Shown here piece by piece: positions 14,924 to 52,039 of a stretch of 64,000 nt of DNA (position 1 is the first letter of the stretch; each line of letters begins with the position of its first letter). This DNA comes from Escherichia coli (lineage in GTDB: Bacteria > Pseudomonadota > Gammaproteobacteria > Enterobacterales > Enterobacteriaceae), in the NCBI RefSeq assembly GCF_002854065.1, contig NZ_CP024147.1; one strand, given 5' to 3'. The position numbers and the translations under genes were made by a program. A model generated the notes under the pieces. The model was not told where the DNA came from, made no database searches, and was given only the letters and a program-made list of their open reading frames with translations.

Positions 14924-15736
14924 TCAGCACTCAACAAACTGATGCTGTTCATTAAGACGATAGCGGACTCCGGCTCGAATATTGTTTTCACCTTCAATGG
15001 CGACGGCGAAACGAACTCTTTCGCCGTCATGATATGCCAGTGCGGCGCTTCCTCCTGGCCCGAGAATAATTGAGTCGACCACGCCCGTGCTCACTACCGT
15101 TGAATTTTCACCGCTGGCAATGATGTGTACATTGTCGCCGCTGTTGACAATTTTGGCGTTTGCGCCAAAGCTGGCGATTTGCACCAGGTCACCATTACTG
15201 GCGACATGACATCGTTCACCCAATGTACAAACGCGTACTCGCATTCCGGTATTCGCAATCCGACTGCTATCTCCAGCGCTGCTTATCCGCGAAGAATTGC
15301 CGGTTACAGCAACCCGTGCGCGCTCACCGGAGCTGCCAATGTGACTGTTAAAGCCGACACTTCCAATCCGCACGCTATAACCCATACTGGCAATTTGTAC
15401 AGCATACCCAGCGGTTGCGATTCTGGCGTTATCCTCACAACAGCCGATGCGAGCATGATCGTCGCTGCGGGCAAACTGACTGCAAAATGCTCTCTCTCCG
15501 GGATCTGTGGCCAGTTTTTGCATAGAGGAAACTTCCTGATGCGCGAAGTTTTCATCCGCCAGCCATTTTTTCCACGCATACTCAACAAGACTCTCCGCCC
15601 AGTCCGTATATCCTTCCTCAATCAGTGCATGATGAATATCAGCATAACTACCGCCGCGCGGGAAATGGCGCAGGAACCAGCGATACATCACCGCTCCGAT
15701 ACGCCATTCTCGCAGGTCTGCTCGTGTAATGATCAT
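14924..15736 (-). CDS. ydhT: Nonapeptide-repeat protein, last gene of the ydhYVWXUT operon
   Basis: 270-aa ORF; residues about 102-218 are at least 13 tandem 9-residue units (YAVQIASMG, YSVRIGSVG, FNSHIGSSG, ...). Confidence 0.8.
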   Translation of the reverse strand: MIITRADLREWRIGAVMYRWFLRHFPRGGSYADIHHALIEEGYTDWAESLVEYAWKKWLADENFAHQEVSSMQKLATDPGERAFCSQFARSDDHARIGCCEDNARIATAGYAVQIASMGYSVRIGSVGFNSHIGSSGERARVAVTGNSSRISSAGDSSRIANTGMRVRVCTLGERCHVASNGDLVQIASFGANAKIVNSGDNVHIIASGENSTVVSTGVVDSIILGPGGSAALAYHDGERVRFAVAIEGENNIRAGVRYRLNEQHQFVEC

Positions 15737-15739
15737 TCG

Positions 15740-16525
15740 TTAGTGCCGGTGATAGCCATCGACCATGCTTTTAAAGGTTTCGTGTGGCGTACGCCCCGTG
15801 GTGCAAAGATAAAGATGACCGAAGATAAAAAAGAGGCTTATAAATGCCAGAGCAAAATGCGCCTGCAATAACCAGTATCTTACGCCAGGAAACACATCTC
15901 CCACGGCTTGCGGATAGAGACACAGCAGCCCCGTCAATAGTAACAACGGCAGCAATCCATACATGACACCAACATAGGCAACCTGCTGTAAGGGATTAAA
16001 TTTAGACTGGGTTGTTGCCGGGAAAGGATGTTCTTCCCCCTGCATAATGCCAAACAAATAAAATCGCGTTTGTTTTGCCGCCCGCTCCAGCCAACCCTGA
16101 CGACGAATGCGATAGTGGTGGCCATTACCCCCAACGGCATTGATCAGAACAAAGCCGTGCCAGCATGCCAGTAACAAAAATCCGCAAACTTCATGCACCG
16201 CAACCAGACTTTTAACCGCAGTTGCGCCCACCAGCGCAAAGTGATTTATCAGCCCACTTGCCAGCAACAATACAAAGAGTAACGCATTCGACCAGTGCCA
16301 TAATCTGACCGCTTTGCTGTAAAGATAAATCTTCTCACCATGATCGGTGGCTGATTTCTTCACGCCACGAGCACGAAGCAAGGCGTGCAGCCCCAGCACC
16401 AACCACATCCCAACCAGCAATACTCCGGCAATGATCAACCACACCGGCCAAAATTCGGGAGTGAACTGTGGCACATAGTTCGCTAACTGGCTCTGAAACT
16501 GTTCAGCATGTTGCGACGGGTTCAT
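15740..16525 (-). CDS. ydhU: PhsC/NrfD-like integral membrane cytochrome b-type subunit
   Basis: 261-aa polytopic ORF with conserved His in helices; 4-nt overlap with ydhX. Confidence 0.8.
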   Translation of the reverse strand: MNPSQHAEQFQSQLANYVPQFTPEFWPVWLIIAGVLLVGMWLVLGLHALLRARGVKKSATDHGEKIYLYSKAVRLWHWSNALLFVLLLASGLINHFALVGATAVKSLVAVHEVCGFLLLACWHGFVLINAVGGNGHHYRIRRQGWLERAAKQTRFYLFGIMQGEEHPFPATTQSKFNPLQQVAYVGVMYGLLPLLLLTGLLCLYPQAVGDVFPGVRYWLLQAHFALAFISLFFIFGHLYLCTTGRTPHETFKSMVDGYHRH

Positions 16526-17190
16526 ACATTTTCCTTTTTAATCAAATGTTGACCGAACCGGCGATACAGATGCGGTTTCCCGGCACCAGGTAGCTGATAT
16601 TGATAGTATTTATTATCCTGCAACCACACCTGAATTTCTGGGCTATCTTCGCGACCAAAGATCAATGCGTGTTCCGGGCAGGCGCTGACGCAAATGGGCG
16701 GAAAGCCTTTTGCCAGTCGGGACTCAGCGCAGAAATCACATTTATCTGCCACTTTAGTGACAGGGTTAAGGTAGCGAACCTGGTACGGACAAGCGCCAAT
16801 GCAATAACTGCAGCCGATGCACTGCGATTTTTCTACCCGCACGATCCCCTGCTCATCACGCCACGACGCCCCTGTCGGGCATACGTCGATGCACGGAGCA
16901 TCTTCGCAGTGCTGACATGACTGGCGAAAAAAGTGATACTGCGTTTCGTTGTCGTTATCGGTGACTGGAATGTGTGCTATCGATAAACGGCTTCCCTGAG
17001 CGGGGACGTGGTTAGTTTTACGGCATGCGCGGGCGCAAATATTACAGCCATTGCACCGTGACTCGTCATGAATCATGGCATACCGAACTTCCTTTTCTTG
17101 CCTCGTGTTCGCTAACAGAGAAGACGCAGAACCAGTAAAAAAGATTACTGTTCCCATCCCCAGAACAAATTTGCGTCGAGTGAAGGACAT
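16522..17190 (-). CDS. ydhX: Tat-exported 4Fe-4S ferredoxin-like subunit
   Basis: 222 aa from the internal Met (MSFTRRKFVLGMGTVIFFTGSASSLLA, twin-arginine signal); multiple CxxCxxCxxxCP clusters. The ORF-track start at 17241 is an unsupported extension. Confidence 0.8.
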   Translation of the reverse strand: MSFTRRKFVLGMGTVIFFTGSASSLLANTRQEKEVRYAMIHDESRCNGCNICARACRKTNHVPAQGSRLSIAHIPVTDNDNETQYHFFRQSCQHCEDAPCIDVCPTGASWRDEQGIVRVEKSQCIGCSYCIGACPYQVRYLNPVTKVADKCDFCAESRLAKGFPPICVSACPEHALIFGREDSPEIQVWLQDNKYYQYQLPGAGKPHLYRRFGQHLIKKENV

Positions 17191-17253
17191 CTGATTATCC
17201 CCTAATGCAGTGGCTGCAACTGTCCACCCTATCCATGACATCTCCCTGAAATT

Positions 17254-17901
17254 TCAGGGGTTCTGAAACTGCTCTACCTCGAACCATTCGCATAAGCCAT
17301 AAGCCTTGCCATAGGTCATAAATCGCTCGCTAAACAAGTACAACACCGCCGTCGATGACTCCACCTGCCGTATATCGGCATATTCAGGTGCAACATCCAT
17401 CGCGGCGATCGCGGCTTCAATCTGCGCTTCCTGGAAGTAATATGGCGCTTGCATCAGCATGGCGACTTTGTAAGGACGAGGATACGTCTGGCACTCAAAA
17501 CGAACGGCGTGTGCAATGGCGCGACAAATGTCCTGCTCCACAACTTGCAAAGACATCGCCGCGTAGTTTTCACTCATGGCCTGCGTTGAGTAATAGTAAT
17601 CATCCTGACTTCCCGTCATACAAGCGATATCCGCGTAGTCTCCGTTCTGCTTAATGCTTTCCAGCAAAACTGACAGTTCCTCTTCTGCAACTGAATAGGG
17701 TGGCGAGAGAAACACGGCGCGCGCCACCAGCTGCCCAGCCACAGAATGCTGGCGAATGAACTCTGCCAGGATTTCAGCCGGTTCTGGTTCGGTTACCGTA
17801 TCAACGGGGTGACGCATCCCCTGCAACCATTGCCGCTTCGCCTCGTCAACTTCGCTGACTTTCGCTAACGGCAATTCATCCTGATGGTTCATCTTACCCA
17901 T
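17254..17901 (-). CDS. ydhW: Operon protein of unknown function (possible maturation/chaperone factor)
   Basis: 215-aa ORF between ydhX and ydhV on the same strand. Confidence 0.75.
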   Translation of the reverse strand: MGKMNHQDELPLAKVSEVDEAKRQWLQGMRHPVDTVTEPEPAEILAEFIRQHSVAGQLVARAVFLSPPYSVAEEELSVLLESIKQNGDYADIACMTGSQDDYYYSTQAMSENYAAMSLQVVEQDICRAIAHAVRFECQTYPRPYKVAMLMQAPYYFQEAQIEAAIAAMDVAPEYADIRQVESSTAVLYLFSERFMTYGKAYGLCEWFEVEQFQNP

Positions 17902-17904
17902 TCC

Positions 17905-20091
<2,187 letters not shown>

Positions 20092-20504
20092 TCACCGCAT
20101 AACACACATTTCGAGGATTTTTTACTTTCGGTATTTACGGTGGCCATCATCCACGGGCATGCCGTAGTACAGGCGCTACAGCCAATACAACGTTTATGAT
20201 CGACGGTAATACAGCCTTCTTTCTGCTGCCAGGTAATCGCACCAATCGGGCAGACGTTCATGCATTGCGGCTCTTTGCATTGACGGCAGGTGTCCGCGGT
20301 ATAGTTGAGATCGCCATACAGGCCGCCGCCAGAGCCAACCCCGTTGTCGCCAAAGAAATAATTGCGATGGATTTTGATACGGGAGAAGAATGTCCCTACT
20401 GAGCCATCGTTGAAGTTGGTACAAGAGATTTCACAGCGGTGGCAACCCGTGCATCGCGCTCGCTGGGTCACCAGCTCCCCTTTGGGTGTATTTATCAACC
20501 CTAC

Positions 20505-20512
20505 TGTGCCGC
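20505..20512. repeat. IS1 target-site duplication, left copy (TGTGCCGC)
   Basis: Identical 8-mer immediately flanks both IS1 ends (20505-20512 and 21281-21288). Confidence 0.85.
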
Positions 20513-20567
20513 GGTGATGCTGCCAACTTACTGATTTAGTGTATGATGGTGTTTTTGAGGTGCTCCA

Positions 20568-20843
20568 GTGGCTTCTGTTTCTATCAGCTGTCCCTCCTGT
20601 TCAGCTACTGACGGGGTGGTGCGTAACGGCAAAAGCACTGCCGGACATCAGCGCTATCTCTGCTCTCACTGCCGTAAAACATGGCAACTGCAGTTCACTT
20701 ACACCGCTTCTCAACCCGGTACGCACCAGAAAATCATTGATATGGCCATGAATGGCGTTGGATGCCGGGCAACCGCCCGCATTATGGGCGTTGGCCTCAA
20801 CACGATTTTCCGCCATTTAAAAAACTCAGGCCGCAGTCGGTAA
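20568..20843 (+). CDS. insA: IS1 InsA (transposition repressor / N-terminal part of InsAB' transposase)
   Basis: 91-aa [46 protein letters not shown]... with zinc-finger-like Cys pairs. Confidence 0.95.
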
Positions 20844-21265
20844 CCTCGCGCATACAGCCGGGCAGTGACGTCATCGTCTGCGCGGAAATGGACGAACAGT
20901 GGGGATACGTCGGGGCTAAATCGCGCCAGCGCTGGCTGTTTTACGCGTATGACAGGCTCCGGAAGACGGTTGTTGCGCACGTATTCGGTGAACGCACTAT
21001 GGCGACGCTGGGGCGTCTTATGAGCCTGCTGTCACCCTTTGACGTGGTGATATGGATGACGGATGGCTGGCCGCTGTATGAATCCCGCCTGAAGGGAAAG
21101 CTGCACGTAATCAGCAAGCGATATACGCAGCGAATTGAGCGGCATAACCTGAATCTGAGGCAGCACCTGGCACGGCTGGGACGGAAGTCGCTGTCGTTCT
21201 CAAAATCGGTGGAGCTGCATGACAAAGTCATCGGGCATTATCTGAACATAAAACACTATCAATAA
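20762..21265 (+). CDS. insB: IS1 InsB (catalytic part of InsAB' transposase, made by -1 frameshift)
   Basis: 167-aa [19 protein letters not shown]...HYLNIKHYQ in the -1 frame relative to insA. Confidence 0.95.
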
Positions 21266-21280
21266 GTTGGAGTCATTACC

Positions 21281-21288
21281 TGTGCCGC
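21281..21288. repeat. IS1 target-site duplication, right copy (TGTGCCGC)
   Basis: Matches 20505-20512 exactly. Confidence 0.85.
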
Positions 21289-21631
21289 TATCAATATCTT
21301 CCTGTTTGCAACCCAAAAGTGACAGTAACGCAGGGGCAATTGTTAGACCAGCAAGGCCTTTTCCTGATATACGCAAGAATTCTAATCGCGTTAAGCCAAT
21401 ATCTAATAGTGGACGATCAACCGGGTTCATTTATTTCGCATCCTCTTCGCAAACACAGTGCTGACAATTCAGCAGCCTGATATTAAGCATTCAACTAATA
21501 CGCTGCTGACTCTGTCCTCAACACCAGATATTTTCCCTAACCCGATAGTGTATGAGAAAAGATTTAACGCCGATAAACTAATCCTTTATGGTTAGGAGAA
21601 AAAATAATGTGGTTATTCTGGGCTCTTAACA

Positions 21632-21645
21632 TTGATCATTATCAA
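21632..21645. promoter_or_regulatory. Consensus FNR site upstream of ydhY
   Basis: TTGATCATTATCAA is a perfect match to TTGAT-N4-ATCAA, in the AT-rich region about 200 bp upstream of the ydhY start. Confidence 0.6.
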
Positions 21646-42543: not shown

Positions 42544-44139
42544 ATGAAACCTGTAAAACCACCTCGTATTAATGGACGAGTGCCGGTCCTGTCGGCACAG
42601 GAAGCGGTGAATTATATTCCCGACGAAGCAACACTTTGTGTGTTAGGCGCTGGCGGCGGTATTCTGGAAGCCACCACGTTAATTACTGCTCTTGCTGATA
42701 AATATAAACAGACTCAAACGCCACGTAATTTATCGATTATTAGTCCAACAGGGCTTGGCGATCGCGCCGACCGTGGTATTAGTCCGCTGGCGCAAGAAGG
42801 TCTGGTTAAATGGGCATTATGCGGTCACTGGGGACAATCGCCGCGTATTTCTGATCTCGCAGAACAAAATAAAATTATTGCTTATAACTATCCACAAGGT
42901 GTACTTACACAAACCTTACGCGCCGCCGCAGCCCACCAGCCTGGTATTATTAGTGATATTGGCATCGGGACATTTGTCGATCCACGCCAGCAAGGCGGCA
43001 AACTGAATGAAGTCACTAAAGAAGACCTGATTAAACTGGTCGAGTTTGATAACAAAGAATATCTCTATTACAAAGCGATTGCGCCAGATATCGCCTTCAT
43101 TCGCGCTACCACCTGCGACAGCGAAGGCTACGCCACTTTTGAAGATGAGGTGATGTATCTCGACGCATTGGTTATTGCCCAGGCGGTGCACAATAACGGC
43201 GGTATTGTGATGATGCAGGTGCAGAAAATGGTTAAGAAAGCCACGCTGCATCCTAAATCTGTCCGTATTCCGGGTTATCTGGTGGATATTGTGGTGGTCG
43301 ATCCGGATCAAACCCAACTGTATGGCGGTGCACCGGTTAACCGCTTTATTTCTGGTGACTTCACCCTTGATGACAGTACCAAACTTAGCCTGCCCCTAAA
43401 CCAACGTAAATTAGTTGCGCGGCGCGCATTATTCGAAATGCGTAAAGGCGCGGTGGGGAATGTCGGCGTCGGTATTGCTGACGGCATTGGCCTGGTCGCT
43501 CGGGAAGAAGGTTGTGCTGATGACTTTATTCTGACGGTAGAAACAGGTCCGATTGGCGGAATTACTTCACAGGGTATCGCCTTTGGCGCGAACGTGAATA
43601 CCCGCGCCATTCTGGATATGACGTCCCAGTTTGATTTTTATCACGGTGGTGGTCTGGATGTTTGTTATTTGAGTTTTGCTGAAGTCGACCAGCACGGTAA
43701 CGTCGGTGTGCATAAATTCAATGGTAAAATCATGGGCACTGGTGGATTTATTGATATCAGTGCCACTTCGAAGAAAATCGTTTTCTGCGGCACATTAACT
43801 GCGGGCAGTTTAAACACAGAAATTACCGACGGCAAATTAAATATCGTCCAGGAAGGACGGGTGAAGAAATTTATTCGGGAACTACCGGAAATTACTTTCA
43901 GCGGAAAAATCGCTCTCGAGCGAGGGCTGGATGTTCGTTATATCACTGAGCGCGCAGTATTCACGCTGAAAGAAGACGGCCTGCATTTAATCGAAATCGC
44001 CCCTGGCGTCGATTTACAAAAAGATATTCTCGACAAAATGGATTTCACCCCAGTAATTTCGCCAGAACTCAAACTGATGGACGAAAGATTATTTATCGAT
44101 GCGGCGATGGGTTTTGTCCTGCCTGAAGCGGCTCATTAA
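42544..44139 (+). CDS. ydiF: Fused alpha/beta family-I CoA-transferase
   Basis: 531-aa ORF with CoA-transferase glutamate-site region; immediately upstream of ydiO. Confidence 0.85.
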   Translation: MKPVKPPRINGRVPVLSAQEAVNYIPDEATLCVLGAGGGILEATTLITALADKYKQTQTPRNLSIISPTGLGDRADRGISPLAQEGLVKWALCGHWGQSPRISDLAEQNKIIAYNYPQGVLTQTLRAAAAHQPGIISDIGIGTFVDPRQQGGKLNEVTKEDLIKLVEFDNKEYLYYKAIAPDIAFIRATTCDSEGYATFEDEVMYLDALVIAQAVHNNGGIVMMQVQKMVKKATLHPKSVRIPGYLVDIVVVDPDQTQLYGGAPVNRFISGDFTLDDSTKLSLPLNQRKLVARRALFEMRKGAVGNVGVGIADGIGLVAREEGCADDFILTVETGPIGGITSQGIAFGANVNTRAILDMTSQFDFYHGGGLDVCYLSFAEVDQHGNVGVHKFNGKIMGTGGFIDISATSKKIVFCGTLTAGSLNTEITDGKLNIVQEGRVKKFIRELPEITFSGKIALERGLDVRYITERAVFTLKEDGLHLIEIAPGVDLQKDILDKMDFTPVISPELKLMDERLFIDAAMGFVLPEAAH

Positions 44140-44152
44140 CAGGAGTATCACG

Positions 44153-45304
44153 ATGGATTTTTCTTTAACTGAAGAACAAGAACTGCTGCTGGCCAGTATT
44201 CGCGAACTGATTACGACTAACTTTCCGGAAGAGTATTTCCGCACCTGCGATCAAAACGGGACATACCCGCGTGAATTTATGCGGGCACTGGCGGATAACG
44301 GTATTTCCATGCTTGGCGTGCCGGAAGAATTTGGTGGTATCCCTGCGGATTACGTCACCCAGATGCTGGCGCTGATGGAAGTGTCAAAATGCGGTGCTCC
44401 GGCATTTTTGATCACCAACGGTCAATGTATTCACAGTATGCGCCGTTTCGGTTCTGCAGAGCAGCTACGTAAAACGGCAGAAAGCACCCTGGAAACCGGC
44501 GACCCCGCCTATGCCCTGGCGTTGACGGAACCAGGTGCTGGCTCAGATAACAACAGCGCCACTACCACTTACACGCGTAAAAACGGCAAGGTTTACATCA
44601 ACGGACAGAAAACTTTTATTACCGGTGCGAAAGAGTACCCGTATATGCTGGTGCTGGCGCGCGATCCTGAACCGAAAGATCCCAAAAAAGCCTTCACCCT
44701 GTGGTGGGTCGACTCCAGTAAGCCCGGCATTAAGATTAACCCGCTGCATAAAATCGGCTGGCATATGCTCAGCACCTGCGAAGTCTATCTCGACAACGTG
44801 GAAGTTGAAGAGAGCGACATGGTGGGCGAAGAAGGAATGGGTTTCCTCAATGTGATGTACAACTTTGAGATGGAGCGCCTGATCAACGCCGCGCGCAGCA
44901 CCGGCTTTGCCGAGTGTGCCTTTGAAGATGCCGCCCGCTATGCCAACCAACGTATCGCTTTTGGTAAACCCATTGGTCATAACCAGATGATCCAGGAAAA
45001 ACTGGCGCTGATGGCGATTAAGATCGACAACATGCGCAACATGGTGCTGAAAGTAGCATGGCAAGCCGATCAGCATCAGTCACTGCGCACCAGCGCGGCG
45101 CTGGCAAAACTGTATTGCGCACGTACCGCAATGGAAGTCATTGATGATGCGATTCAAATCATGGGCGGTCTGGGCTATACCGATGAAGCGCGCGTCTCCC
45201 GCTTCTGGCGTGATGTCCGTTGTGAACGTATTGGCGGCGGTACAGACGAAATTATGATTTACGTAGCAGGTCGGCAAATCCTGAAAGACTATCAGAACAA
45301 ATAA
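44153..45304 (+). CDS. ydiO: Acyl-CoA dehydrogenase family protein
   Basis: 383 aa from MDFSLTEEQELLLASIRELI... (AGGAG RBS at 44141-44145); ACAD fold motifs. Confidence 0.85.
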   Translation: MDFSLTEEQELLLASIRELITTNFPEEYFRTCDQNGTYPREFMRALADNGISMLGVPEEFGGIPADYVTQMLALMEVSKCGAPAFLITNGQCIHSMRRFGSAEQLRKTAESTLETGDPAYALALTEPGAGSDNNSATTTYTRKNGKVYINGQKTFITGAKEYPYMLVLARDPEPKDPKKAFTLWWVDSSKPGIKINPLHKIGWHMLSTCEVYLDNVEVEESDMVGEEGMGFLNVMYNFEMERLINAARSTGFAECAFEDAARYANQRIAFGKPIGHNQMIQEKLALMAIKIDNMRNMVLKVAWQADQHQSLRTSAALAKLYCARTAMEVIDDAIQIMGGLGYTDEARVSRFWRDVRCERIGGGTDEIMIYVAGRQILKDYQNK

Positions 45305-45346
45305 TCTGCAGGCGGCGCAGCTTCTTAACAAACTGCGCCGCCAGAT

Positions 45347-46258
45347 TTACCCGGCAAGACTTACCGGTTGAGGAAATTCAGATAAGATTTCTTGTTCCGC
45401 AAAACAGTTTTTAAATTGCCTGCGGTAATCGCTGGGCGAACAACCGACATGGCGCAAAAACAGTTTGGCAAAGTGATCGACATTTTCATAACCCACACGC
45501 CAGGAGATCTCTGCCTGTGATAATTCAGTATTAGTGAGTAACCATTTCGCTTCCGTCATACGCCGTTGAATAACATAGTTAATAGGGGAAATACGATACT
45601 CTTTGGTAAATTCATGGCAAATATAACTGACGCTGGCACGAAATTTTTTCGATAACTGTTCTAAAGTGATTTTTTCGCGATAATTATTATTTAGATAGAA
45701 AAGAATATCTTTTATCAGAACATCTTTTTTAATATACCCCTGCTCCGAACGATAAGCATTTTTAAAGTTTTCGTAGTAAAGAATTGCTAATGTATAGGCA
45801 AATGCATCCCATAACGAAGATGTTTGGCTATTTTTACTTTGCGGCAAAATCACACTTAGCTCATTAAATAAGGTTTTAATGACTTCTTTTCCCTGCCCCG
45901 CGGCAATTACCGGACAAGAATGCGGTTGCAGTAGATGATTTTCCTCAGCCCCCTGAAACTGAAAGCCGTACAGCGCACAGGTACACGTCGTTGCCGGATC
46001 GTTAACGTCAGAGGCCACCGCATGCAGCCTGCCGCGTTCTATCACCACTATATCATCTGCATGCGCGACATATAACGAAGAATCGATGGTAAACCTTGCC
46101 ACCCCTTTCTTGACGTAAATCAGCTCGGTTTCATTGTCATGAACGTGATGTCCAGACTCCCATTTTGGATCATCGCTAAATGCAAAACGTGAAAGCCGTG
46201 GCGTTTTACCAGCGACAAACAGCGTTTCACTGGCATTATCAAAACAGCGTTGATACAT
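45347..46258 (-). CDS. ydiP: AraC-family transcriptional regulator
   Basis: 303-aa ORF with C-terminal AraC HTH; divergent from ydiQ. Confidence 0.8.
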   Translation of the reverse strand: MYQRCFDNASETLFVAGKTPRLSRFAFSDDPKWESGHHVHDNETELIYVKKGVARFTIDSSLYVAHADDIVVIERGRLHAVASDVNDPATTCTCALYGFQFQGAEENHLLQPHSCPVIAAGQGKEVIKTLFNELSVILPQSKNSQTSSLWDAFAYTLAILYYENFKNAYRSEQGYIKKDVLIKDILFYLNNNYREKITLEQLSKKFRASVSYICHEFTKEYRISPINYVIQRRMTEAKWLLTNTELSQAEISWRVGYENVDHFAKLFLRHVGCSPSDYRRQFKNCFAEQEILSEFPQPVSLAG

Positions 46259-46573
46259 GACAACCTCCCTATTCCATGAGCAAGCAAAAACAATATATGC
46301 CGGATAAAATACGGCGTGTATTGCGGTTATACAACCGCGTTTAGCGAGAGCTAAACAAGATTATTTACACTGAATGCAAGATTGTACGGTCATGGAATAA
46401 CTATATTGCCGCAAATTGCACTTTTGTTTTAGCGATCGCATTTTTTTTGCAAGATTGTTGGCAAGGAAAACAGCTTGCTCCGTCGAAAACCCCGCACCGC
46501 TATCGCACACTATTTTCAGGCCATTTTTACCTTCCATCGGAGATGGTTCCGTATGCGACTCACAGGAGAAATC

Positions 46574-47338
46574 ATGAAAATAATAACCTGCTTTAAGCTG
46601 GTGCCTGAAGAACAGGACATTGTTGTCACTCCAGAATACACCCTGAATTTCGACAATGCCGACGCCAAAATCAGCCAGTTCGATCTCAATGCCATTGAAG
46701 CTGCAAGCCAGCTTGCAACAGATGACGATGAGATAGCCGCGCTGACCGTTGGCGGCTCATTGTTGCAGAACTCGAAAGTGCGCAAAGACGTGCTATCCCG
46801 CGGGCCGCACAGCCTGTATATGGTGCAGGATGCACAACTTGAGCATGCACTGCCTCTCGATACCGCAAAAGCGCTGGCGGCAGCAGTTGAAAAGATCGGC
46901 TTCGATTTACTGATCTTTGGTGAAGGTTCCGGCGACCTTTATGCCCAGCAGGTTGGCTTGCTGGTCGGAGAAATTCTGCAACTTCCGGTGATTAATGCAG
47001 TGAGTGCTATTCAGCGTCAGGGCAATACACTGGTGATTGAACGCACGCTTGAAGATGACGTTGAAGTTATTGAACTCTCTGTTCCAGCCGTGCTCTGCGT
47101 CACCTCCGATATTAACGTGCCACGCATTCCTTCGATGAAAGCCATTCTCGGCGCGGGTAAAAAACCGGTAAATCAGTGGCAGGCAAGTGATATTGGCTGG
47201 AGCCAGAGCGCACCACTTGCTGAACTGACCGGCATTCGCGTACCGCCGCAAACAGAACGTAAGCACATCATTCTCGATAACGATTCGCCGGAGGCCATTG
47301 CCGAGCTGGCGGAACATCTGAAGAAAGCCCTGAACTGA
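46574..47338 (+). CDS. ydiQ: Electron-transfer flavoprotein beta subunit (FixA-like)
   Basis: 254 aa from MKIITCFKLVPEEQDIVV... (AGGAG RBS at 46565-46569); the ORF-track start at 46475 is an extension. Confidence 0.85.
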   Translation: MKIITCFKLVPEEQDIVVTPEYTLNFDNADAKISQFDLNAIEAASQLATDDDEIAALTVGGSLLQNSKVRKDVLSRGPHSLYMVQDAQLEHALPLDTAKALAAAVEKIGFDLLIFGEGSGDLYAQQVGLLVGEILQLPVINAVSAIQRQGNTLVIERTLEDDVEVIELSVPAVLCVTSDINVPRIPSMKAILGAGKKPVNQWQASDIGWSQSAPLAELTGIRVPPQTERKHIILDNDSPEAIAELAEHLKKALN

Positions 47339-47357
47339 AGCCTACGGAGAAGAAACG

Positions 47358-48296
47358 ATGAGTCAATTAAACAGCGTCTGGGTCTTTAGCGATAATCCTG
47401 AACGTTATGCTGAACTGTTTGGCGGCGCTCAGCAATGGGGCCAACAGGTGTATGCCATTGTACAAAATACCGACCAGGTGCAGACAGTTATGCCTTATGG
47501 TCCAAAATGTATTTATGTTCTTGAGCAAAACGACGCGCTGCAACGCACTGAAAATTACGCCGAAAGCATTGCTGCTCTGCTGAAAGATAAACACCCCGCT
47601 ATGTTGCTACTGGCCGCGACGAAACGTGGTAAAGCTCCGGCAGCACGGTTAAGTGTGCAACTGAATGCGGCGCTGGTGAACGATGCCACGGCGGTGGATA
47701 TTGTCGATGGTCACATTTGCGCCGAACACCGGATGTATGGCGGGTTAGCGTTCGCTCAGGAAAAGATCAACAGCTCGCTAGCGATCATTACCCTTGCACC
47801 CGGTGTTCAGGAACCGTGCACCAGTGATACCTCTCATCAGTGCCCGACAGAAACGGTACCTTATGTTGCTCCGCGTCATGAAATTCTCTGTCGCGAGCGC
47901 CGTGCGAAAGCGGCAAGCAGCGTGGACCTGAGCAAAGCAAAACGTGTGGTTGGCGTCGGTCGTGGTCTGGCAGCGCAGGATGACCTGAAAATGGTCCACG
48001 AACTGGCGGCGGTGCTGAATGCTGAAGTCGGCTGTTCACGTCCAATTGCCGAAGGCGAGAACTGGATGGAGCGTGAACGTTATATCGGTGTCTCCGGCGT
48101 GTTGCTGAAATCCGATCTCTACCTGACGCTGGGGATCTCCGGGCAGATCCAACATATGGTTGGCGGCAACGGCGCAAAAGTGATTGTCGCCATCAATAAA
48201 GATAAAAATGCGCCAATCTTCAACTATGCCGACTACGGTCTGGTGGGCGATATCTACAAAGTCGTCCCTACCCTGATTAGCCAGTTGAGCCGCTAA
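47358..48296 (+). CDS. ydiR: Electron-transfer flavoprotein alpha subunit (FixB-like)
   Basis: 312-aa ORF with ETF-alpha FAD-binding C-terminal domain. Confidence 0.85.
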   Translation: MSQLNSVWVFSDNPERYAELFGGAQQWGQQVYAIVQNTDQVQTVMPYGPKCIYVLEQNDALQRTENYAESIAALLKDKHPAMLLLAATKRGKAPAARLSVQLNAALVNDATAVDIVDGHICAEHRMYGGLAFAQEKINSSLAIITLAPGVQEPCTSDTSHQCPTETVPYVAPRHEILCRERRAKAASSVDLSKAKRVVGVGRGLAAQDDLKMVHELAAVLNAEVGCSRPIAEGENWMERERYIGVSGVLLKSDLYLTLGISGQIQHMVGGNGAKVIVAINKDKNAPIFNYADYGLVGDIYKVVPTLISQLSR

Positions 48297-48351
48297 TTCC
48301 CCTTTCAACCACATCTCCCGCTGTAAACGCAGCGGGAAGGGAGCATAACGC

Positions 48352-49641
48352 ATGTCGGATGACAAATTTGATGCCATTGTGGTCGGTGCGGGCGTTGCTG
48401 GTAGCGTTGCCGCACTGGTCATGGCACGAGCCGGGCTGGATGTCCTGGTGATAGAACGCGGCGACAGTGCCGGATGTAAAAACATGACCGGCGGGCGTCT
48501 TTATGCCCACACACTTGAAGAGATTATTCCAGGCTTTGCAGCATCAGCGCCGGTAGAACGCAAGGTCACACGCGAGAAAATCTCCTTCTTAACCGAAGAG
48601 AGCGCCGTTACCCTCGATTTTCACCGCGAGCAACCAGATGTTCCGCAACACGCATCTTATACCGTATTGCGTAATCGTCTGGACCCGTGGTTGATGGAAC
48701 ATGCCGAGCAGGCGGGCGCACAGTTTATCCCGGGAGTTCGCGTCGATGCGCTGGTTCGTGAAGGAAACAAGGTCACTGGCGTCCAGGCTGGGGATGATAT
48801 TCTCGAAGCGAATGTGGTGATTCTGGCTGATGGCGTTAACTCGATGCTTGGCCGTTCGCTGGGAATGGTTCCCGCTTCCGATCCGCATCATTACGCTGTT
48901 GGTGTTAAAGAGGTTATTGGCCTCACACCAGAACAGATCAACGATCGCTTTAATATTACGGGCGAGGAAGGTGCCGCCTGGCTGTTTGCCGGTTCCCCTT
49001 CTGACGGCCTGATGGGTGGCGGATTCCTCTATACCAATAAGGATTCCATATCGTTGGGGCTGGTTTGTGGATTGGGTGATATCGCCCATGCGCAAAAAAG
49101 CGTGCCGCAAATGCTGGAAGATTTTAAACAACACCCCGCCATTCGCCCGCTGATTAGCGGCGGCAAGTTGCTTGAATATTCCGCGCATATGGTGCCGGAA
49201 GGCGGTCTGGCAATGGTGCCGCAACTGGTTAACGAGGGCGTGATGATCGTTGGTGACGCCGCAGGCTTCTGCCTGAATTTGGGTTTTACGGTCCGCGGCA
49301 TGGATTTAGCCATTGCATCGGCTCAGGCTGCCGCCACAACGGTGATCGCCGCCAAAGAACGCGCGGATTTCTCCGCCAGCAGTCTTGCGCAATACAAACG
49401 TGAGCTGGAACAAAGTTGTGTTATGCGCGATATGCAGCATTTTCGCAAGATCCCGACGCTGATGGAAAATCCGCGCCTGTTTAGTCAGTATCCGCGCATG
49501 GTCGCCGACATCATGAACGATATGTTCACCATTGACGGCAAACCAAACCAGCCGGTACGCAAAATGATCATGGGACACGCGAAGAAAATTGGGCTGATCA
49601 ACTTGCTGAAAGATGGCATTAAGGGAGCAACCGCGCTATGA
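48352..49641 (+). CDS. ydiS: ETF:quinone oxidoreductase-like FAD flavoprotein (FixC-like)
   Basis: 429-aa ORF with N-terminal GxGxxG (VVGAGVAGSVAA). Confidence 0.85.
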   Translation: MSDDKFDAIVVGAGVAGSVAALVMARAGLDVLVIERGDSAGCKNMTGGRLYAHTLEEIIPGFAASAPVERKVTREKISFLTEESAVTLDFHREQPDVPQHASYTVLRNRLDPWLMEHAEQAGAQFIPGVRVDALVREGNKVTGVQAGDDILEANVVILADGVNSMLGRSLGMVPASDPHHYAVGVKEVIGLTPEQINDRFNITGEEGAAWLFAGSPSDGLMGGGFLYTNKDSISLGLVCGLGDIAHAQKSVPQMLEDFKQHPAIRPLISGGKLLEYSAHMVPEGGLAMVPQLVNEGVMIVGDAAGFCLNLGFTVRGMDLAIASAQAAATTVIAAKERADFSASSLAQYKRELEQSCVMRDMQHFRKIPTLMENPRLFSQYPRMVADIMNDMFTIDGKPNQPVRKMIMGHAKKIGLINLLKDGIKGATAL

Positions 49642-49931
49642 GCCAGAACGCTACGGTTAACGTCGACATCAAATTAGGCGTCAATAAATTCCATGTTGAT
49701 GAGGGCCACCCGCATATCATTTTGGCGGCAAATCCCGATATCAATGAATTCCGTAAATTAATGAAAGCCTGCCCTGCCGGACTTTATAAGCAGGATGATG
49801 CCGGCAACATTCATTTTGATTCCGCCGGTTGTCTGGAGTGCGGCACCTGTCGGGTGCTGTGCGGTAACACTATTCTCGAACAGTGGCAATATCCCGCAGG
49901 CACCTTCGGTATTGATTTTCGCTACGGCTAA
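49638..49931 (+). CDS. ydiT: Ferredoxin-like protein (FixX-like)
   Basis: 97-aa ORF with Cys cluster CPAGLY...CLECGTCRVLC; 4-nt overlap with ydiS. Confidence 0.85.
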   Translation: MSQNATVNVDIKLGVNKFHVDEGHPHIILAANPDINEFRKLMKACPAGLYKQDDAGNIHFDSAGCLECGTCRVLCGNTILEQWQYPAGTFGIDFRYG

Positions 49932-51253
49932 TCATGCATCCCACAGGCCCGCATCTCGGGCCTGATGTTCTGTTTCGAGAGTCCAAAATGAAAGTGACAT
50001 TAACGTTTAACGAACAACGTCGTGCGGCGTATCGTCAGCAAGGGCTATGGGGCGATGCTTCGCTGGCCGATTACTGGCAGCAGACCGCTCGTGCGATGCC
50101 AGACAAAATTGCCGTGGTCGATAATCATGGAGCATCGTACACCTATAGCGCGCTCGATCACGCCGCGAGCTGTCTGGCAAACTGGATGTTAGCGAAGGGT
50201 ATTGAATCAGGCGATCGCATCGCATTTCAACTGCCAGGCTGGTGTGAATTTACCGTTATCTATCTTGCCTGCCTGAAAATCGGTGCGGTTTCCGTACCGC
50301 TGTTGCCTTCCTGGCGGGAAGCAGAACTGGTATGGGTGCTTAATAAGTGTCAGGCAAAAATGTTCTTTGCACCGACGTTGTTTAAACAAACGCGTCCGGT
50401 AGATTTAATCCTGCCGCTGCAAAATCAGCTTCCACAACTACAACAAATTGTCGGCGTGGACAAACTGGCTCCCGCCACCTCTTCCCTCTCATTAAGTCAG
50501 ATTATCGCCGACAATACCCCACTGACCACGGCGATAACGACCCACGGCGATGAATTAGCCGCGGTGCTGTTTACCTCCGGAACCGAGGGCCTGCCAAAGG
50601 GCGTGATGCTTACGCATAACAATATTCTCGCCAGTGAGCGGGCTTATTGCGCGCGGCTGAATCTGACCTGGCAGGATGTCTTTATGATGCCTGCGCCACT
50701 CGGCCACGCAACGGGCTTTCTGCATGGCGTAACAGCACCATTTTTGATTGGTGCTCGCAGCGTGTTGTTAGATATTTTCACTCCTGATGCGTGTCTCGCG
50801 CTGCTTGAGCAGCAGCGTTGCACCTGTATGCTCGGCGCAACGCCGTTTGTCTATGATCTTTTGAATTTACTAGAGAAACAACCCGCAGACCTTTCAGCGC
50901 TGCGCTTCTTTCTTTGCGGCGGTACCACAATCCCCAAAAAAGTGGCGCGTGAATGCCAGCAGCGCGGCATTAAATTATTAAGTGTTTATGGTTCCACAGA
51001 AAGTTCGCCGCATGCGGTGGTGAATCTCGATGATCCTTTGTCGCGCTTTATGCACACCGATGGTTACGCTGCCGCAGGTGTAGAGATTAAAGTGGTCGAT
51101 GACGCACGCAAGACCTTACCGCCAGGTTGCGAAGGTGAAGAAGCCTCGCGTGGCCCCAATGTGTTTATGGGGTATTTTGATGAACCTGAATTAACCGCCC
51201 GAGCCCTGGATGAAGAAGGCTGGTATTACAGCGGCGATCTCTGCCGTATGGAT

Positions 51254-51262
51254 GAAGCTGGC
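51254..51262. repeat. IS1 target-site duplication, left copy (GAAGCTGGC)
   Basis: Identical 9-mer at 51254-51262 and 52031-52039 flanking the IS1. Confidence 0.9.
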
Positions 51263-51317
51263 GGTGATGCTGCCAACTTACTGATTTAGTGTATGATGGT
51301 GTTTTTGAGGTGCTCCA

Positions 51318-51593
51318 GTGGCTTCTGTTTCTATCAGCTGTCCCTCCTGTTCAGCTACTGACGGGGTGGTGCGTAACGGCAAAAGCACTGCCGGACATCA
51401 GCGCTATCTCTGCTCTCACTGCCGTAAAACATGGCAACTGCAGTTCACTTACACCGCTTCTCAACCCGGTACGCACCAGAAAATCATTGATATGGCCATG
51501 AATGGCGTTGGATGCCGGGCAACCGCCCGCATTATGGGCGTTGGCCTCAACACGATTTTCCGCCATTTAAAAAACTCAGGCCGCAGTCGGTAA
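51318..51593 (+). CDS. insA: IS1 InsA
   Basis: 91-aa ORF identical to the copy A InsA. Confidence 0.95.
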
Positions 51594-52015
51594 CCTCGCG
51601 CATACAGCCGGGCAGTGACGTCATCGTCTGCGCGGAAATGGACGAACAGTGGGGATACGTCGGGGCTAAATCGCGCCAGCGCTGGCTGTTTTACGCGTAT
51701 GACAGGCTCCGGAAGACGGTTGTTGCGCACGTATTCGGTGAACGCACTATGGCGACGCTGGGGCGTCTTATGAGCCTGCTGTCACCCTTTGACGTGGTGA
51801 TATGGATGACGGATGGCTGGCCGCTGTATGAATCCCGCCTGAAGGGAAAGCTGCACGTAATCAGCAAGCGATATACGCAGCGAATTGAGCGGCATAACCT
51901 GAATCTGAGGCAGCACCTGGCACGGCTGGGACGGAAGTCGCTGTCGTTCTCAAAATCGGTGGAGCTGCATGACAAAGTCATCGGGCATTATCTGAACATA
52001 AAACACTATCAATAA
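51512..52015 (+). CDS. insB: IS1 InsB
   Basis: 167-aa ORF identical to the copy A InsB. Confidence 0.95.
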
Positions 52016-52030
52016 GTTGGAGTCATTACC

Positions 52031-52039
52031 GAAGCTGGC
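52031..52039. repeat. IS1 target-site duplication, right copy (GAAGCTGGC)
   Basis: Matches 51254-51262 exactly. Confidence 0.9.

Follow-up and report, generated by a model that had tools for sequence, protein, structure and literature searches.

The ydh operon and the IS1 element within ydhY

The DNA analysed here, referred to as the window, is a 64,000-bp stretch of contig NZ_CP024147.1 from the Escherichia coli assembly GCF_002854065.1. It is collinear with positions 1733821-1796266 of the K-12 MG1655 chromosome at 98.5-99.0% identity, and two IS1 copies are the only interruptions of this collinearity. Fifty-seven of the 59 K-12 proteins are full length and free of stops in the window (grxD is cut by the window edge), and the only split genes are ydhY and fadK. 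The mepH gene (617-1441, + strand) exhibits an in-frame length difference of four codons from its K-12 counterpart, with 98.2% identity and no stops.

The ydhY gene is located on the - strand and is followed on the same strand by ydhV, ydhW, ydhX, ydhU and ydhT, the whole set lying between ydhS and fumD. This order was obtained by tblastn with the K-12 proteins and by collinearity with K-12, and it bears out the first-pass annotation, which had named ydhY as the first gene of a ydhYVWXUT operon. The five genes following ydhY occupy 14924-20007, and none of them is shortened or carries a stop or a frameshift. The ydhYVWXUT genes are described as one FNR-activated operon with an FNR site at -42.5, and the FNR-dependent promoter that precedes ydhY is the only one documented (PMC3688515). 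Partridge et al. 2008 is the reference cited for ydhYVWXUT in PMC3688515 and PMC10845959. A predicted FNR box is found in the ydhY promoter region of the window at 21632-21645 (TTGATCATTATCAA, a perfect match to the pattern TTGATNNNNATCAA). This box is the only perfect one in the 64-kb window, and it lies intact upstream of the insertion.

The coding sequence of ydhY is interrupted by a complete IS1 of the IS1B/C type, which was read directly from the sequence at 20513-21280 (768 bp). The element is on the + strand and is thus antisense to ydhY. Its left inverted repeat (IRL, GGTGATGCTGCCAACTTACTGAT) spans 20513-20535 and its right inverted repeat (IRR) spans 21258-21280, where the end of the element is the reverse complement of GGTAATGACTCCAACTTATTGAT. 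These two ends are the canonical IS1 inverted repeats and are complementary at 18 of 23 positions. A consensus IHF-type motif, TATCAATAAGTTG, is situated subterminally in the IRR at 21257-21269. The promoter scan identified a promoter-like site for insA (CTGCCA-16-TATGAT, 20520-20547, + strand), and the insA ORF of 91 codons (20568-20843, + strand) begins with a GTG start and is open. An A6C slippery motif at 20819-20825 (+ strand) is the site of the -1 frameshift by which the InsAB' transposase is made, and the insB' reading frame (20762-21265, + strand, 167 codons as listed) is also open. The 232-aa product of the -1 fusion scored 243.8 bits against the NCBIfam model NF033558 'IS1 family transposase', which has a cut-off of 100.

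A copy in strain CUWW06 that PGAP labels 'IS1-like element IS1B family transposase, programmed frameshift' has the same sequence as the ydhY element over all 768 bp (100% identity), and other annotated IS1A and IS1B copies differ from the ydhY element by 1-11 mismatches. All of the defining features of IS1 that were tested are present, and the element is IS1 itself and not a variant. The intact ORFs and ends, together with the two identical copies in the window, suggest that this copy may be active in transposition.

The IS1 is flanked by an exact 8-bp direct repeat, TGTGCCGC. The left copy of this target-site duplication is located at 20505-20512, corresponding to ydhY nt 143-150 as read on the - strand, and the right copy at 21281-21288. 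The 8-mer is present once in IS-free genomes, where its flanks are contiguous over 792 bp (thousands of genomes). One further occurrence is found on the same strand of the 64-kb window, and the chance of an 8-bp match at a fixed position is 1/65,536. Longer repeats of 9, 10, 11 and 12 bp were checked at the junctions and none of them fits, which sets the duplication at 8 bp. A 9-bp duplication was considered and rejected, as it would need an IS1 of 767 bp, and the identical copy in fadK measures 768 bp and has a clean duplication of 9 bp. Target duplications of either 8 or 9 bp are documented for IS1 (PMC12428005). The complete 768-bp element, the exact repeat on either side of it and its orientation antisense to the operon agree with what the first-pass annotation had reported.

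Fragments of ydhY and predicted polarity on the operon

The IS1 splits ydhY after codon 50. When the element and one copy of the repeat are deleted in silico, a 208-codon ORF is restored in frame, with a product identical to K-12 YdhY (b1674) at 207 of 208 residues. The rebuilt protein matches the NCBIfam model NF007382 (YdhY-type ferredoxin-like protein) along its entire length, positions 1-208 of 208, at 432.9 bits against a cut-off of 213. The 5' fragment is an ORF at 21430-21200 on the - strand, in which codons 1-50 of ydhY (21430-21281) are followed by 26 IS1-encoded codons and a stop. It encodes a 76-aa fusion, and its 50 YdhY residues are identical to those of K-12. The 3' fragment (20028-20512, - strand, with the aligned part at 20510-20031) carries native residues 49-208 with one substitution and contains the whole Fe-S domain.

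The point of interruption, the restored 208-codon frame and the 26-residue IS-encoded tail had all been described correctly at the outset. The further statement that the 3' fragment has only a TTG as potential start stood in part. The TTG is present at 20498, but it is not the sole candidate, since an in-frame GTG follows nine codons later at 20471. This GTG is preceded by the Shine-Dalgarno-like sequence AAAGGGGAG and lies ahead of the first Cys cluster. Some YdhY consisting of the leaderless domain could be produced from it if transcripts get through.

The Fe-S domain of the rebuilt YdhY extends over residues ~61-202. Over residues 64-202 it aligns with the Fe-S subunit (8c0z_C) of the aldehyde oxidoreductase from Aromatoleum and with further four-cluster ferredoxin subunits, and Pfam Fer4 families match residues 116-199. 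Within the first 50 residues, the sole alignment is to the leader part of the models for the Tat-exported relatives TtrB and DsrO. The insertion is therefore placed where it cuts a signal-peptide-like leader from the entire predicted redox domain, and owing to this separation ydhY is considered a null allele. As a separate observation, the N-terminus (21430-21281, - strand) is Tat-leader-like, although TRLEFLR replaces the twin arginine, and residues 1-50 end in the lipobox-like LLSLLGC.

Under anaerobic conditions, FNR-driven transcription would still begin upstream of ydhY and would enter IS1 at its right end, antisense to insA. The ribosome would halt 26 codons into IS1. Translation of the 5' fragment ends at 21200, leaving ~690 nt of untranslated antisense IS1 RNA, and this RNA is C-rich and G-poor at ~21230-20930 (C 30-36%, G 21-26%). 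RNA that is rich in C and poor in G has the composition favoured by Rho. Rho would be expected to terminate transcription within this long untranslated stretch, and the intact ydhV, ydhW, ydhX, ydhU and ydhT would then not be expressed. Strong polarity through Rho, in either orientation, is a classical property of IS1, and therefore loss of YdhY with little or no expression of ydhV to ydhT is the most likely outcome. The promoter scan found no site above threshold pointing from IS1 toward ydhV. Polarity on ydhVWXUT, the presumed targets, is thus inferred from base composition and from classical knowledge of IS1, and it is a reasonable reading given the intact upstream FNR promoter, the untranslated C-rich RNA, the lack of an outward promoter above the scan threshold and the known polarity of the element.

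Disruption of ydhY could instead be accompanied by incomplete polarity, with read-through or a hybrid promoter supplying low, FNR-independent expression of the 3' part of ydhY and of ydhVWXUT. A candidate for such a promoter was noticed by eye at the left junction on the - strand, where TTGGCA in the IRL is separated by a 17-bp spacer from TAGGGT in ydhY. However, it matches at only 8 of 12 positions, which is below the scan threshold, and the scan did not report it. The in-frame GTG and its upstream AAAGGGGAG would offer a start for translation, yet a YdhY begun there would be without the N-terminal 59 residues. The downstream genes are all intact, as residual expression would predict, though a recent event predicts likewise. 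The established strong polarity of IS1 in both orientations also argues against appreciable expression, and incomplete polarity is regarded as unlikely. Loss of YdhY with silencing of the downstream genes is the preferred reading.

Age and distribution of the insertion

The nearest genome is that of strain CUWW06 (NZ_CP182139.1), which exhibits 99.96-100% identity to the window, with 10 substitutions over ~32 kb. The ydhY gene of CUWW06 is intact and annotated. Because a near-identical genome has an intact ydhY, the insertion in the window is recent and lineage-specific. A Shigella origin, suggested by the presence of two IS1 copies within 64 kb, was also considered and was rejected, since all genes except ydhY and fadK are intact and an E. 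coli of 99.96-100% identity exists; the window is not a decaying region of the Shigella kind.

The second IS1 is located in fadK at 51263-52030 (+ strand) and splits this gene after ~codon 443. It is flanked by a 9-bp duplication, GAAGCTGGC, at 51254-51262 and 52031-52039. The fadK copy is 100% identical to the ydhY copy, has the same orientation and lies ~30 kb from it. Its right junction is common to CUWW06 and the window. As CUWW06 shares only the fadK insertion, this insertion is the older of the two, and the one in ydhY is younger and specific to a sub-lineage.

Several further observations concern the fadK copy. Strains CUWW06 and 100416 have the right junction of the fadK IS1 in common, with 100% identity. 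In CUWW06 the fadK IS1 is joined directly to ydiF, and ~7.2 kb corresponding to window positions 44089-51262 is absent. The genes lost in CUWW06 are the 3' end of ydiF, ydiO, ydiP, ydiQ, ydiR, ydiS, ydiT and the 5' part of fadK. This loss looks like an IS1-adjacent deletion in a sister lineage, with the window keeping the undeleted state. The two identical direct IS1 copies of the window (20513-52030) bracket ~30 kb that includes pykF, lpp, ldtE, the suf operon, ydiJ, aroD and others. Recombination between the two copies could readily delete or duplicate the bracketed DNA, or the whole could move as a composite element; neither kind of event was in evidence.

The first-pass annotation had proposed a search of other genomes for IS1 at the ydhY site. 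None of 5,426 complete RefSeq E. coli genomes has both junctions of the window, whether one or the other orientation of the IS serves as query, and the full-coverage hits of the survey are IS1 copies at other positions. The search did return nearby independent IS1 insertions in three lineages, which are described in the next section. No metagenome contig was found in which IS1 in either orientation ends within 24 bp of TATCAATATCTTCC, an outcome to be expected of short-read assemblies, which break at IS copies. A literature search on ydhY and IS1 returned nothing related, the sole return being a paper on an avibactam-resistant mutant with a large deletion.

When the 76-aa fusion ORF was searched for as an exact match, a single Logan contig (SRR23253413, 1065 bp) emerged, which encodes the identical ORF and has the same right junction. 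The IS1 of this contig differs at 7 positions, the flank has one SNP and the left junction is unassembled. The different IS1 variant and the SNP in the flank indicate that the contig is probably from another strain. The contig may record a fifth independent insertion at the identical base pair, or it may come from a related strain, and it was left out of the statistics on recurrence given below because its left junction is missing.

The Logan contig also bears on whether the ydhY IS1 could be an assembly artefact, in which a copy of the repeat was misplaced by the assembler. IS1 is multicopy in related genomes (at least 40 matching pieces per record), and such repeats can be misplaced. Against this, an element of exactly 768 bp with a perfect 8-bp duplication of a sequence that is single in IS-free genomes is the signature of transposition and not of a mis-join, and the right junction recurs in the assembly of an independent public read set. 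An artefact is thus considered highly improbable, and the insertion is treated as genuine.

Recurrence of IS1 at the target site and comparison with known systems

The catalogue of insertions near ydhY was drawn from complete RefSeq E. coli genomes. Sixteen records, covering most of the copies located by two surveys of IS1 near ydhY, were fetched and 11 were mapped onto IS-free sequence, with records H67-H71 from the reverse-orientation survey left out. The IS1 of the window is on the + strand, with its duplication at ydhY nt 143-150. In strain VG12A2 the duplication CTGTGCCGC covers ydhY nt 143-151 and the IS is on the - strand, and in STEC388 the duplication ACTGTGCCG covers nt 144-152 with the IS on the + strand. 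The C21 group, to which HZDC01 and two chicken-farm isolates (H12-H14) were added by identical hit statistics, has the duplication TATCAACCC at nt 154-162 (IS +). Three further insertions with the IS on the + strand are found in ES7 (CTAATAGTG, nt 20-28), 19KM1778 (TCACAGCGG, nt 216-224) and Res13 (CCCGATAGT, nt -118 to -110). The IS1 of MS15047 (IS +) is located at nt -118 and has no duplication, only the left junction being present and the right side deleted. More IS1 copies are found farther upstream, in fumD and in ydhV.

A by-eye count of the IS1 copies around ydhY, made with no correction for kinship, gave ~14 independent events with insA on the strand it occupies in the window and ~5 on the opposite strand. 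In MS15047, fumD is deleted on the far side of the IS1 and ydhV is annotated with an internal stop. In strain G47-1 the order is ydhR-IS1-ydhY, with ydhY truncated at its 3' end and ydhS through ydhV deleted, an IS1-linked loss.

Four independent insertions fall within the 20 bp of ydhY nt 143-162 (window 20493-20512 and 21281-21296). Three of the six other independent events lie within 12 bp of the site in the window (Monte Carlo p = 6e-4), and two of the six lie within 1 bp (Monte Carlo p = 2e-4); these values are conditioned on the window's own site and on 792 bp of query-covered flanks, and they refer to a small sample of six other events. The presence of independent IS1 insertions in three other lineages within 12 bp, two of them within 1 bp, points to a local IS1 hot spot.

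The target itself resembles the right end of IS1. The 9-nt sequence CTATCAATA at 21288-21296 (+ strand) overlaps the last base of the duplication and recurs without mismatch in the IHF-site region that lies subterminally in the IRR. Its extended form, TATCAATATCTTC, agrees with 12 of 13 positions of the IHF consensus WATCAANNNNTTR and is absent from the exact IHF matches because of the one position missed, while the corresponding subterminal part of the IS1 right end is a perfect match to WATCAANNNNTTR. The target is also bracketed by two TATCAA motifs. Hot spots for IS1 near IHF sites were described in the 1980s. Two papers cited in PMC11043490, Gamas 1987 and Prentki 1987, report by their titles that IHF binds the ends of IS1 and an IS1 insertion hot spot.

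The choice of site is probably non-random, judging by the recurrent IS1 hits in 20 bp and the adjoining 9-nt copy of the IS1 IHF-site sequence. The link to an IHF site would fit the known behaviour of IS1 and is put forward as a lead. A more specific proposal is that ydhY nt 143-162 is a genuine chromosomal hot spot positioned by the flanking TATCAA motifs, with the IHF-type site on one side and the second TATCAA on the other, giving recurrent knockout of the ydh operon. This proposal is held tentatively, as a possibility that falls somewhat short of an even chance.

As an alternative to a target preference of IS1, the recurrent hits could be due to selection in some niches that favours losing the ydh operon. 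This explanation draws on the ~20 independent IS1 insertions or IS1-linked deletions in or beside ydhY, ydhV and the promoter among the 5,426 genomes, on the loss of ydhS through part of ydhY in G47-1 and on the internal stop in ydhV of MS15047. Selection would, however, scatter insertions over the 5.5-kb operon, whereas four were seen in 20 bp and three of these in 2 bp. A rough estimate from ~11 IS1 places per genome in 5,426 genomes, made without correction for clonality, predicts ~20-30 copies in any 2-3 kb, so there is no obvious regional excess of IS1. The downstream genes in the window also exhibit no decay. Selection is accordingly considered improbable, and a target preference of IS1 is the favoured account of the recurrence. 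Overall, the locus is very probably best explained by a recent insertion of a functional-looking IS1 that leaves ydhY null, is expected to silence the downstream genes and occurred at a site that was probably not chosen at random.

Polar disruption of genes by IS1 is textbook biology that is already known, and the present case leaves current understanding unchanged. The specific features of the case are the allele, which none of the 5,426 complete E. coli genomes carries, its recent appearance as judged against CUWW06 and the recurrence of IS1 at the site. For annotation, ydhY of the present strain should be recorded as a pseudogene interrupted by IS1, and the aldehyde-oxidoreductase system encoded by ydhV should be assumed to be non-functional, though five of the six genes look intact. 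The present strain and a CUWW06-like strain with intact ydhY would form a near-isogenic pair, provided by nature, for testing what the ydh operon does. The local hot spot would be a small natural example of a target preference that was described decades ago on plasmids. If the hot spot is genuine, one and the same element would have inactivated the ydh oxidoreductase operon at this position several times, each time independently, in natural lineages of E. coli.

The rebuilt YdhY is comparable to the AorA-type polyferredoxin subunit of aldehyde:ferredoxin oxidoreductases, with the same Fe-S alignment, and ydhY lies directly upstream of ydhV, a homologue of AOR. In the present genome, ydhY is split, so the protein as such is not encoded. 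The arrangement also resembles the classical polar IS1 insertions in the gal and lac operons in its promoter-proximal site, early stop of translation and long untranslated RNA, and as in those cases ydhVWXUT has no known promoter of its own. It differs in that ydhYVWXUT is FNR-activated and anaerobic, and in that the polarity is here a prediction from sequence. With the IHF-linked IS1 hot spots of the pBR322 type (Gamas et al. 1987, Prentki et al. 1987), the ydhY target has in common the clustering of insertions within a few bp and an IHF-like sequence adjoining the target; in contrast to the pBR322 hot spot, the ydhY case rests on the comparison of four lineages, with the IHF site assigned by resemblance. 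The element belongs to the IS1 family and corresponds to the IS1B/IS1C type of E. coli K-12, having the same length, inverted repeats, insA/insB' frames and A6C site, and it is identical to that type. The ydhY duplication is 8 bp instead of the 9 bp that is more usual for IS1, and its location is new among the 5,426 RefSeq genomes.
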